Positions 1,323 through 12,370 of a stretch of DNA of 15,166 bases are shown here, in pieces (positions within the stretch are counted from its first letter, which is position 1; every line of letters starts with the position of its first letter). The notes beneath the pieces are model-generated. The model worked only from the letters and a program-made list of their open reading frames with translations, searched no databases and was not told the origin of the DNA. The stretch covers positions 1-15,166 of the forward strand of contig JBHGNT010000814.1 of NCBI GenBank assembly GCA_043228905.1. Direction: 5' to 3'. Both the position numbers and the translations under genes were made by a program. Source of the stretch: Azolla caroliniana (lineage: Eukaryota > Plantae > Polypodiophyta).

Positions 1323-1799
1323 TGTCACGGACACACCAAGTGCGGACTAAGACGGAGCACGGATGATGAGGCTACGACGGAGCGATGACATAATGACACA
1401 GGAGCATAAAGATAGAGATGAAGATTAAGGAGAGAAGATGGGCGAAACGAGAATACTAGATTGATATGTCCATGATTGGCGTTGAATCCCCTGAAAGGGA
1501 CCAAGGATGTTACAAGTATTTTATACATGTTCCAAGATTGAATATCTCTACAATATACTCGAGAAATATCTCTAGAATATAGTCGTCTAGAATATGCCAT
1601 ACAATATTTCTAGAATATACTAACGACTAGAGTATTATCAATCAATTCTGAAATGTATTATATGCTAGACTATAGAATACTAAACCATTATATACAAATG
1701 CATGCTCATATCAAAATGGTTGAGCATGACATCTTCTTGATGTGAGGTTGTAGGTTCAATACTCACCAACTATGTATTTCATGTCACTGTGTCATGACA
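1323..1799 (-). repeat. LTR (477 bp) of the deleted element
   Basis: Minus strand reads TGTCATGACAC...CCGTGACA; preceded directly by a polypurine tract; TATAAAA on minus at 1519-1525. Confidence 0.8.
1702..1770 (+). other. Degenerate tRNA-like / Pol III A-B box module inside the LTR
   Basis: A-box-like TATCAAAATGG at 1709-1719; B-box-like GGTTCAATACT at 1753-1763 (44-nt start-to-start spacing); ACATC/GATGT anticodon-type stem; GAGGT variable-loop motif. Confidence 0.55.
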
Positions 1800-1813
1800 T
1801 TATCCTCCCCTTT
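1800..1813 (-). promoter_or_regulatory. Polypurine tract (PPT)
   Basis: Minus strand AAAGGGGAGGATAA abutting the LTR start TGTCATG. Confidence 0.75.
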
Positions 1814-1881
1814 ACGGTTGCTTTTCCGAAATCGTGGTGTAGGGGTGAGCAGGAAGTGGAGCATGTCATTGTGTCATGACA

Positions 1882-3755
1882 TTAATGTTTGTGCTAGATG
1901 TGGATATGCCTAAAAAGATTACAACCATGTTTGCAGAAGGAATGAGTGTAATCTCAGATGTGGAAATGTGGCGTAAAAGAATCGGTCACATAAGTATGCA
2001 AACCTTGAAAAATATGTTGAGGAAAAATGCAGTGGTTGGATTGCCTAAGTTGAAAGATTGTGAGATGAGCAAAATATGTGAAGCATGCCAATATGGAAAG
2101 CAAAACAGGTTGCCTTTCCTTGATAAAAGACATGCAACCAAAAATTTGTTGGATTTGGTATATACAAATGTATGGGGACCAACAAAAAATGCATCAATTA
2201 GTGGTTGCAGGTTCCATGTAACTTTTATTGATGATTGCTCAAGGAAAACATGGGTTTACTTCATGAAAGAGAAAAGTGAAGTATTTGATTGCTTTCGTAA
2301 GTTCAAATGCATGGTAGAAAAGCAAGTTGGAACTAGAATAAAATGTTTAAGATTTGATGGAGGAGGAAAATACTTCTCAAATGAGTTTTCTGATTTTCTA
2401 TGCAATCAAGGAATAAGGAGACAATTTACATGTAGATATACCCCACAACAAAATGGAGTTGCTGAGAGAAAAAACAGAACTCTGGTGAACATAGCAAGAG
2501 CCATGATGATTGAAAAAAATATGCCATTGTATTACTGGGTAGAAGTTGTAAACACAACAAACTTTATTCTAAATAGATGTATAACATCTGGAGTACATGA
2601 AGTAACTCCTGAAGAATGTTTATATGGAAGGAAACCTAGTTTAGGACACTTACAAGTGTTTGGATGCAAGGCAGGTACCTACTTAAGTGAGAAGTAAGCT
2701 TGATCCAAAAGCTGAAAAATGTATTTTTGTTGGATATTTAGAGGAACAAAAAGGGTATAGATGCTATAACCCTTTGACAGAGAAGATTGTGGTAAGTCGG
2801 GATGTAATATTTGATGAGTTGGGCAGCTGGTACAACCCAAAACAAAATGTAGAAACTGATGAAGACAAGGATAAATCTGAAAATGTAAGAGATAACCACA
2901 GAGATGGAAACAATGTTGGACAACAAAGTTCAACATCAATAGAATGTACAGGACCATTAAAAAACTTTGGTAGTAAATTTGATTCAAATGCATGGAGTAG
3001 AAAACATTCAGGACATAAAAAATATGATGATAAAAAGGGAAAACAGAAAATGCCAGAATATGAAATGCTTGATGATGGGTCTAGAAACATGGAAGATGTA
3101 GATTCAGATACATCATTGGATAATGAGCTTGGTATAGGAGCCTTGAAAATCCTTGGTATGGAAAAGGCAATGAAAGATGCAAGTCAAAAATTGAGAAGAT
3201 CATATAGAGAGAAAAAAACAGTTGAAAGATTTGGTTATGATACATACATGGCTATGCATTATGCATATATGTCTAAAGTGGTACAAATCCTTGATCCAAA
3301 TAATTTTGATGAAGCAAAATCTGATAAGAAATGGGTGAATGCAATGCAAGAAGAAATAGATGCATTGGCTGAAAACAAAACATGGGATTTAGTGAAGTTA
3401 CAAAAAGGAAAAAATTGTTGTAGGTTGCAAATGGGTCTACAAAACAAAGCATGATTCAAATGGGAATGTAAGTAGACATAAAGAAAGACTTGTGGCAAAG
3501 GGATATGCTTGAATTGATTATGATGAAACTTTTGCACCGGTTGCAAAGATGGCAACATTGAGGACACTACTTGTTGTGAGTGCAGCCAAAAGATGATTTC
3601 TGCACCATATAGATGTAAAAAATGCTTTTTTACATGGAAACTTGGAAGAAGAAGTGTATATGTGTCAACCACTAGGTTTTGAAGATAAGAAGCATCCAGA
3701 ATATGTTTGTAAGCTGAAAAAGGCCCTCAATGGACTGAAACAAGCACCGAGAGCA
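1882..3755 (+). pseudogene. pol: Copia pol: GAG-pre-integrase, integrase and N-terminal reverse transcriptase (disrupted)
   Basis: WRKRIGH...CEACQYGK; VTFIDDCSRKTWVYF; TPQQNGVAERKNRT; RSKLDPKAEKCIFVGY; RT segments [35 protein letters not shown]; frameshifts near 2670 and 3420. Confidence 0.92.
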
Positions 3756-4192
3756 TGTGTTACCGGCCGGCAAAGGAGTCCAGAGTGTGAAACGGGGAGT
3801 TATTTAATTATTAGGAATGGTTGTAAGTAAGCTATGAGTGTGGACGGACGGACCGGAATCGGTATGCCGTTCTGGATCCGGACCGATCCCGAACAGGTGC
3901 GGATGGCACCGTTTTGTACTACATACCGGAAACCTATTTAAAGGCCCGGATACAATGTAATGAGCATCGGTTAATTAATAAAGCTTAGTGTTTTTATCTC
4001 TCTGTGTTAATTGCCGTTCTGCATTCATTGTTATATCTTACGTGTGTGATTATTAAGGACGATCTTACTAAGTAGCCTAATTAAGTCAGATTAATCGTTG
4101 ATTTTAATCCTCTTGCCGTAACACCCCTTTGGTGAAGTATCTTCCGTAGACACCCTGTGTTAGGCCATTGTCCGGCCCTAAGAATTAACACA
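3756..4192 (+). repeat. 5' LTR of gypsy A (437 bp; ends could be 2 bp shorter on each side)
   Basis: Perfect 7-bp inverted termini TGTGTTA...TAACACA; TATTTAAA at 3935-3942; AATAAA at 3977-3982; followed by a PBS. Confidence 0.8.
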
Positions 4193-4197
4193 GTTTT

Positions 4198-4207
4198 TGG
4201 CGACCAC
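4198..4207 (+). promoter_or_regulatory. Primer binding site, probably tRNA-Arg
   Basis: TGGCGACCAC 5 nt after the LTR; complementary to the 3' end (GTGGTCG-CCA) of plant tRNA-Arg(UCG) as I recall it. Confidence 0.65.
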
Positions 4208-4659
4208 GATTCTTGTTTTTACAGCGAACGACGACACGGATGGATGACTAGATCAACGCACGACCTGGTTACAGATCGAACTCGACGCCTTGCCGAAAGG
4301 CAAAGGAGACATGAGGCTTTCCAGCAAGCGGCGTAGGAAATTAGAGCGGATCGCTCGTTTTCCAACGTAATCCGGAGAGTAGCGGAGGACTCCCTCTGGT
4401 TATAGCAAACATCGCACCCGGATGACGACAACAGCCTAAGCAGCCTTCGGGAAACCGAATCCCTTCTCCAGGCGTTGGCAAACGGAGAAGGCGAAGCAGA
4501 AGCCTTTTCAGCGTATGAATCGGATTCTGAAGGGGAATACAACGTGCTCACGAACTACCGTAGCAACAATGAAACCCCGGGCGGACCGGAGGACGAAGGA
4601 TCAGACACCTTACCGACACCGGAACCGGAAGTGCTAAGGTTGGAACCTCCGGAACCAGC

Positions 4660-10794: not shown

Positions 10795-10880
10795 CAGGGG
10801 AGAATGAGGCGACGGCAAACCGTAATGAGGCCGGTAAGGGTTCGATAGGACCAACGGAAAACTAACCTCACACCACATTT

Positions 10881-10910
10881 AAAAAAAGAAAAAGAAAAAA
10901 GAAAAAAAAA
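10881..10910 (+). repeat. A-rich purine tract downstream of pol
   Basis: aaaaaaagaaaaagaaaaaagaaaaaaaaa. Confidence 0.6.
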
Positions 10911-11240
10911 GCGAGGTAATCATGCAAAAGCGAGGTATGAGAGAGAGCGAGGAGCGAAAAGGTATGTAGTGGGCATTTAAGCGCCACCACAGGACATAAT
11001 GCTATTTTAGTACACGACGTGCACACACTTGAAAAAGGCGCCAGAATGCACAGAGAAAAACCACTACACGTGGAGACCCTCTACTTTCGCGAACCCAGGA
11101 GCACAGAAGCACCAAGGCGCTGGAAGATCATCAGACGAGAACCTATGCACAGAGAACCCCCGCTTTTTGAACTCTCTCTCTCTCAATCTCACTCTCATCA
11201 CCATCCAACCTCGCCACCACAATCCGACCTCGACACATAC

Positions 11241-11751
11241 ATGGACCCGCAAACGCTGTCGAAAGCCGCCAAGAAATGGCTAAAGCAACACGGGCTCGAG
11301 GGCTTCTTGACGATTATGGAGGTACCGCCACACAAAGAAGTCGACAAGGTTATCAAAGAAATCGACACAAAGGTCATAACGGGGGAGGCGATCCGTGCGT
11401 TAACAGGCCTTCCGGAGGGAGGCATACTCACGATTGACAATCCGACCTCGGAGCAACTCATCAAGTATTTTGGTGAGTACTCCCTAGCCAGCAAGGGCTA
11501 CCGGACACAGGGCGGCGGAGATATGCTGTTCCGCAAGATTGCTCGTGTGCTCCACGAATACGGCCATGTGTACCCTAGACCCCCTGTCATGCCGCAGAAC
11601 CGGGCAGGGATGATCATCGCCACCTATGAAGGGATCAATGTGGATTGGCCGGTATTGATCGCAGACGGTTTGTGTGCGGCGATTGAGATCGTCAGAGGCA
11701 AAGACGACAAAGAAGGCCGAGACGGACGAAGGATATGGCACGCAGTAACGC
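11241..11751 (+). pseudogene. Extra ORF 3' of integrase (Athila/Tat-type accessory ORF), truncated by LTR B
   Basis: ATG at 11241 after a CT-rich leader; open for about 170 codons to the insertion point; WLKQHGLEGFL, ITGEAIRALTGLP and INVDWPVLI recall plant retroelement accessory-ORF domains. Confidence 0.6.
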
Positions 11752-12135
11752 TGTCGTGAAGATTTTCGGCAATAGTGTGAAAATCCCATAAAACGTACAA
11801 AATCGAGTATGAATCACATAATACAATAATTGTGAAGATTACATTTTAAATAAATTTAATATCTAAGTACAAAATGATGGAGGTTTCGAATGCACTTTAT
11901 TACACGAGAAACGGACAACTAAATGTCAAGATATGAGGGTATAAAGTTTGTGAAAGGAAAAGAGAAAATTGTGAGATATCCCACATAGGCACGACAAATA
12001 CGGCTCTCATCATATATAAGGTAGAGCAAAAGATATTATCTTTGTGTCTATGTGTGGAGCATAGAGAGTTCAAGGTAACTTGAACTAAGAGTGGAGGTGG
12101 GCTAGCTACTTGTAAAGGGTTTTGGCCAACCAAAA

Positions 12136-12258
12136 CCGGACCGGCGATGGAGCCGGTGATCTGGCGGCATCCGGCGCTAGTGAGACACTGGCATCCGACG
12201 GCAATCCGGCGACGGCAAGGTGACGGTATCCGGCATCCGGTGAACCGGCGTCCGGTGA
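12136..12258. repeat. GC-rich degenerate short repeat (ATCCGGC / ACCGG units) in U3
   Basis: catccggcg, catccgacg, aatccggcg, tatccggc, catccggtg, aaccggcg, tccggtg. Confidence 0.7.
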
Positions 12259-12299
12259 CTAGATAAATAAATATATAAATATATATACATATACAAGGA

Positions 12300-12370
12300 G
12301 GGCAAGTAAGGATTCGAACCTTGCACCTCCGAATTAGGAGTCAATTGGCTTACCATTAAGCCATGCCATT
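12300..12370 (-). other. tRNA-like / Pol III A-B box module inside LTR B
   Basis: Minus strand: A box TGGCTTAATGG (12363-12353); perfect B box GGTTCGAATCC (12320-12310); 43-nt spacing; D stem GGCTTA/TAAGCC; T stem AAGG/CCTT; GGCA/TGCC closing stem. Confidence 0.78.

Follow-up and report, generated by a model that had tools for sequence, protein, structure and literature searches.

In a 15,166-nt stretch of DNA from Azolla caroliniana (contig JBHGNT010000814.1; hereafter the window), which is a nest of worn long terminal repeat (LTR) retroelements, we observe that three LTRs each carry a module made of the A box and B box of a transfer RNA (tRNA) promoter, placed in antisense within the U3 region and upstream of a predicted TATA-like box. 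The pattern of what is kept in these modules favours, at roughly even probability, the reading that the boxes are an element-borne TFIIIC site acting as a chromatin barrier or as a promoter positioner. The modules and the LTRs that hold them are the following:

1702–1774 (+): module M1 (tRNA positions 1–73), with A box 1709–1719, GAGGT 1744–1748 and B box 1753–1763
7695–7766 (+): module M2, with A box 7702–7712 and B box 7745–7755; the first run of four T residues (T4) starts 22 nt past the B box
12299–12370 (−): module M3, with A box 12363–12353 and B box 12320–12310; the first T4 run starts 174 nt past the B box
1323–1799 (−): LTR1, the 3′ LTR of an element outside the Phygy lineage that has lost internal sequence, delimited by its termini and by diverse flanks behind 1799
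1517–1525 (−): predicted TATA-like box of LTR1
7077–7868 (−): LTR2, a solo Phygy LTR inside pol of a host Gypsy element, with a 4-bp NCGN duplication (7073–7076 and 7869–7872)
7419–7427 (−): predicted TATA-like box of LTR2, worn in this copy
11752–12834 (+): LTR3, the 5′ LTR of a Phygy element that interrupts the host Gypsy element at 11752
12543–12551 (+): predicted TATA-like box of LTR3

With at most one mismatch allowed per box, the window contains exactly three A/B pairs, at 1709/1753 (+, 44 nt), 7702/7745 (+, 43 nt) and 12363/12320 (−, 43 nt), which are the positions and spacings reported in an earlier note on this DNA. Dinucleotide shuffles of the window (n = 300) give a mean of 0.023 such pairs and a maximum of 1, and a chance origin of the three is excluded. 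As the earlier note had also stated, every module is antisense to its host LTR (LTR1 −, LTR2 −, LTR3 +). The module lies upstream of the TATA-like box in all three cases, with 184, 275 and 180 bp between the A-box start and the TATA-like box (LTR1, LTR2 and LTR3; about 180, 270 and 175 bp had been proposed), and the LTR 5′ end is some 37, 114 and 559 bp away from the B box; the idea that the modules occupy the same place in U3 thus stands relative to the TATA box and fails relative to the LTR 5′ end. This is also the pattern across 10 LTRs, where the distance from the module to the TATA box ranges from 165 to 280 (standard deviation [SD], 44), versus 83 to 650 (SD, 195) for the distance to the LTR end. 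CCGG-rich blocks lie distal to the module in 4 of these 10 LTRs and between module and TATA box in none; we observe these short-repeat blocks in distal U3 beside the module (window 12140–12260 and the related loci L003, L033 and L078), with a presence that varies between relatives. None of the modules is a tRNA gene, ARAGORN calling 0 genes in the window and the tRNA model RF00005 matching M3 only, at 13.6 bits versus a gathering score of 29.

With respect to lineage, the three LTRs had been described as three different ones, but they represent two lineages because LTR2 and LTR3 both belong to Phygy, a Ty3/gypsy lineage. The two LTRs have in common their TGTCGT...CGACA ends and the NCGN type of target site. 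Their relatives further link them by one primer-binding site (PBS), which is identical after LTR3 and after the related LTRs L044 and L078. The exact PBS sequence at 12843–12860 is one that we take to be of tRNA-Trp identity. An NCGN left flank is present in 12 of 16 loci of the relatives, and 3 more fit CpG decay. Passages of Neumann 2019 (PMC6317226) give Phygy a 4-bp NCGN target duplication and a tRNA-Trp PBS in 81%, and LTR2/LTR3 resemble Phygy in both features as well as in a reverse transcriptase–RNase H–integrase (RT-RH-INT) order without an extra RNase H domain. TatI, which also combines 4 bp with Trp, is a less likely lineage for LTR2/LTR3, since it carries an extra RNase H and none is found by Pfam in the related locus L033. 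The module common to LTR2 and LTR3 is most simply explained by common descent within Phygy. LTR1 is unlike both, with other ends, another polypurine tract (PPT) and an implied 5-bp duplication. As a separate observation, the PBS at 12843–12860 is the complement of small RNAs called "miR894" in passages of PMC5846777; this abundant plant small RNA probably derives from the 3′ part of a tRNA and could target elements of the Phygy lineage.

Related loci were collected from metagenome contigs in a single scan blind to strand, with a pattern that fixed most box letters. The resulting 117 loci were sorted by BLAST and by eye into 26 relatives of LTR2/LTR3, 72 loci that we call group B (34 nonredundant) and 19 others, 2 of which ARAGORN calls tRNA genes; contig depth was not taken as copy number. 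A script could anchor 19 of the 26 relatives by PBS, PPT or LTR 5′ end (the other 7 were not anchorable), and all 19 modules are antisense with 43-nt spacing, indicating a nonrandom orientation across families, as the earlier note had predicted. The module is found in 5′ LTRs ahead of a PBS and gag (L044 and L078) as well as in 3′ LTRs after a PPT (five loci), and L033 encodes an uninterrupted 914-amino-acid (aa) RT-RH-INT followed by a PPT and an LTR with the module. LTR3 matches the related locus L003 at 80 to 84%, with the module at the same place, and gag is 39 to 43% identical over 89 to 113 aa between Phygy families. In a viral sequence collection, we obtained 0 matches to the module pattern and 0 to the RT and pol queries; 31 PBS matches in that collection, which come without a tblastn match to the window proteins, were treated as chance. 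Furthermore, five motifs were not found in the four text supplements of a P. patens transposable element paper.

These data support the view that the LTRs carry the module as a lasting component and not as a freshly inserted short interspersed element (SINE). A recent SINE insertion was considered and rejected: no repeat beyond chance flanks any module, contrary to what independent insertions with target-site duplications of their own would leave, and M1 is partly skipped only by single low-depth contigs. Among the 15 of 625 joints listed (next to 40 of 2,880 differences), none skips M2 or M3, a number too small to test fixation. In the LTR1 family, which was not selected for its boxes, contigs of four runs carrying four organism labels read through the module, and the B-box mismatch of M1 at 1761 is private to the window copy, with about 80 to 96% of the aligned depth in four runs showing the canonical base. 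This persistence, together with the fact that several Phygy families have the module in LTRs of both the 5′ and the 3′ end, bears out the proposal that it is a fixed component of the LTR.

Since most letters of the boxes were dictated by the search pattern, conservation is fairly tested on the letters outside it. In the 26 relatives, which are redundant loci, the TRGY head of the A box stands at its exact position in 17 (versus a background of 1.4%) and the base after the TRGY head region is A in 26; the pattern has a length of 47 in 25 of these redundant loci, although 46 to 49 was permitted. Twenty Phygy modules align with only one gap column in 84. The sequence around the boxes, in contrast, is at shuffle level between Phygy families, both in the two flanks (0.55 versus 0.50 and 0.50 versus 0.52) and between the boxes (0.51 versus 0.48), and cloverleaf pairing reaches 48.3% versus 46.8% in shuffled sequences, with 59 of 500 shuffles scoring as high and no covariation. 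Boxes and spacing thus outlast both flanks and cloverleaf across the relatives, in line with the earlier note, which had the boxes kept between the 7.7-kb and 12.3-kb copies while the anticodon arm was not. In the LTR1 family, sites varying at 15% or more account for 1 of 28 box positions and 22 of 127 positions elsewhere, a borderline difference (one-sided P = 0.049). Judged from these comparisons, conservation of the module extends across the Phygy families that were sampled.

Group B has the same tRNA-derived head as the modules within AT-rich, TAGGT-rich repeats that have no recognized LTR features, with homology on both sides of the head. One of its members, L070 (module at 3001), has CACTA-like inverted ends matching at 16 of 18 positions, with a 3-bp duplication; the element reaches from about 840 bp ahead of the module start to 676 bp behind it. 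A convincing pair of terminal inverted repeats with a 3-bp duplication was found in only this 1 of the 34 nonredundant loci, compared with 0 to 1 of 34 in controls, and a second inverted-repeat match in group B proved to be a microsatellite. The simplest origin of the modules, as suggested by these sequence comparisons and in line with the proposal of Kojima, would be that several transposons each took up the head of an old SINE of tRNA origin.

Several points weigh against a selected TFIIIC site. The Phygy loci were retrieved by a pattern that contains the boxes, which makes box conservation there partly circular, and the 26 relatives are redundant, falling into about five families that were assigned by eye, most of them LTR2-like. 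The 19 antisense loci are not 19 events; one capture probably lies behind all 26. Among the relatives, no contig holds both LTRs of one element. The site classes of the LTR1 test were set after viewing the table, with two copy-private sites left out, and at position 10 the A box of LTR1 has kept a nonconsensus base. One LTR of the window, the fourth (3758 to about 4190), lacks a module, having one 2-mismatch pair with 39-nt spacing on the sense strand and none in antisense. The head of group B (72 loci, 34 nonredundant) is what would be expected from an old dispersed SINE.

It is against this background that a neutral relic has to be weighed, that is, an ancient SINE head caught in an ancestral LTR and seen only because our search demanded its boxes. 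The pattern-based ascertainment of the loci, the same head in non-LTR repeats and the T/AT-rich tracts behind M2 and M3, which look like a worn tail, would all fit such a relic, and SINE capture is what passages of Kojima 2024 (PMC10886601) propose for Helenus. A relic would not, however, be expected to keep exact spacing and unselected box positions where the adjacent sequence has gone to shuffle level, nor to show variation that avoids the boxes in the LTR1 family, and both Phygy LTRs of the window carry the module; we regard this explanation as quite unlikely. Selection might instead act on a short antisense RNA polymerase III (Pol III) RNA, or on its transcription, that dampens the element through pairing with U3 in the genomic RNA or through the kind of repression that tRNA genes exert on a neighbouring Pol II promoter in yeast. 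The same box conservation and strict antisense polarity would follow from such a unit, and a T4 run is indeed present within 20 to 30 nt in most LTR2-like loci, but a functional RNA is weakened because the terminator distance is not kept (174 to 257 nt in the LTR3 family and 58 in LTR1) and no RNA structure is conserved; the inter-box sequence drifts freely as well. We therefore hold an antisense Pol III product to be unlikely.

Both the antisense polarity and the location in U3 would also suit an extended PBS, in which the module, as a tRNA complement in the U3 of the genomic RNA, anneals the D and T arms of the primer and aids strand transfer, and it is indeed the D and T loops that the kept parts represent. 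Ty3 has a bipartite PBS, and a tRNA-like sequence embedded in HIV-1 U3-R was reportedly described by Piekna-Przybylska in 2010; both cases resemble the modules in having a tRNA complement in the U3 of the genomic RNA. They differ in matching their own primer, whereas the T arm of the modules does not match that of the primer predicted from the window PBS: tRNA positions 49, 50, 62 and 63 agree in 0, 1, 0 and 1 of 28 modules, and positions 52 and 59 differ too, although these were fixed by the search pattern. Since a like module is also present in another LTR lineage and outside LTRs, we consider this possibility very improbable.

An antisense module cannot transcribe its element, and therefore another role is needed. 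A TFIIIC boundary or nucleosome positioner is favoured because the kept parts are those that TFIIIC reads, namely, two boxes, their spacing and nearness to a Pol II promoter. In such a scheme, an LTR would long ago have captured a tRNA-derived SINE head or a tRNA gene, reverse transcription would have copied the module into both LTRs, and purifying selection would then act on the boxes as DNA. TFIIIC would bind the boxes and TFIIIB would be loaded on the TATA-facing side, so that a chromatin boundary or a patch of open chromatin would form upstream of the predicted Pol II TATA box, at a distance of one to two nucleosomes. The antisense polarity may be kept because any Pol III would be sent away from the Pol II promoter, and the benefit would be shelter from silencing inside retroelement nests. 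More tentatively, and with a probability clearly below even, coding retrotransposons of early land plants may carry their own tDNA-type (tRNA gene-type) insulator, lineage-wide in Phygy, gained separately by a second LTR lineage and with the head in at least one CACTA-like element, in which case transposons would generally counter silencing by recruiting TFIIIC.

The remaining features of the window are as follows:

1–3757: Copia element, host of insertion 1
1323–1881 (−): insertion 1, consisting of a full 3′ LTR (LTR1), PPT, 64 bp from the internal region and a 5′ LTR stub of 18 bp
1800–1863 (−): PPT of insertion 1 (1800–1813) and final 64 bp of internal sequence, read from the sequence
1864–1881 (−): 5′ LTR stub of the same element as LTR1, from repeat comparison
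3758–4192 (+): LTR region of the host Gypsy element, without a module (internal negative case)
12843–12860 (+): PBS after LTR3, read as tRNA-Trp type
12899–15095 (+): broken gag/protease region of the LTR3 element, with a DUF4100 match

In aligned contigs, an empty-site joint (1319→1884) backs the LTR1 insertion and implies a worn 5-bp duplication, and the empty-site joint of LTR2 (7069→7866) is present in 4 of 4 runs; other copies of the LTR1 family run on beyond 1863 into differing sequence, seen as loose ends of the aligned contigs. The right-hand target duplication of insertion 1 (1864–1886) has 2 of 5 letters unlike the left one and copies the letters adjoining the 3′ LTR instead. In LTR2, one motif occurs three times downstream of the TATA-like box (7196–7345), and a palindromic, CATG-rich 63-mer is present twice on the upstream side (7474–7601); both features recur in relatives. 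The LTR of the host Gypsy element seems to have two ends, at 4123 and 4192 (window 4116–4200). After each of them comes a PBS-like stretch that begins with TGG, and a small segment resembling a hairpin lies between the two. Behind the integrase of this element, a 272-aa extra frame (10941–11759, +) without a Pfam match resembles the 3′ extra open reading frames of Athila/Tat. The named protein homologues come from Riccia and Adiantum, which suggests a host resembling bryophytes or ferns.

Among known systems, the earlier note had pointed to Cassandra as precedent, but Helenus (TRIMp3), a terminal-repeat retrotransposon in miniature (TRIM) with tRNA-like sequence in its LTRs, is closer. According to passages of Kojima 2024 (PMC10886601), the tRNA-derived sequence in Helenus LTRs has kept boxes A and B and lost tRNA function, and the elements are noncoding and 311 to 1,263 bp long, with LTRs of at most 323 bp. 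Helenus thus shares with our modules a tRNA-derived LTR sequence with both boxes, and the plant member described there, from Selaginella, even has GGAGGT before the B box, as seen here. In the Helenus consensus LTRs given there, however, the tRNA part is in sense, so that Pol III could transcribe the element, whereas the modules here are antisense (3/3 in the window and 19/19 loci). The LTRs here are also longer (477 to 1,083 bp) with a separate TATA-like box, and the Phygy elements with the module are coding, as seen from gag/pro behind LTR3, the 914-aa pol of L033 and gag in L044 and L078. The module elements thus fall outside Helenus, lacking two of its defining features, the short noncoding build (as seen in the Phygy elements) and the sense promoter. 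Cassandra and Ajax, TRIMs of plant or animal origin, likewise have a Pol III promoter in the LTR, but of 5S type and in nonautonomous elements (PMC10886601, in the passages used here). The same source speaks of tRNA-like parts in "not a few" Repbase LTRs, with only TRIMs described in those passages; because of this remark, the bare presence of tRNA-like LTR parts may have been seen before. A tRNA-like LTR module is not mentioned in the passages on Phygy that we draw on (PMC6317226), and literature searches turned up no account of such an antisense module for coding LTR elements of plants, although Repbase entries, subscription journals and bioRxiv supplements may hold one.

Pol III boxes in LTRs have so far been described as promoters of miniature noncoding elements, with autonomous partners expected to rely on Pol II, and the antisense tRNA-box module in coding elements appears, from its sequence, to be a new form of Pol III-box LTR with a putative function. 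Should the module prove to be a TFIIIC site, these genomes would hold TFIIIC or insulator sites spread by thousands of dispersed LTRs, which would bear on how plant retrotransposons stay expressed in silenced nests and on whether TFIIIC barriers work in plants. In the tDNA/TFIIIC insulators and B-box SINE barriers of yeasts and mammals, a B box, alone or together with an A box, serves as the TFIIIC site next to a Pol II promoter. Those insulators are host loci or SINEs, whereas the putative TFIIIC site described here is a fixed part of the LTR of a coding plant retrotransposon.

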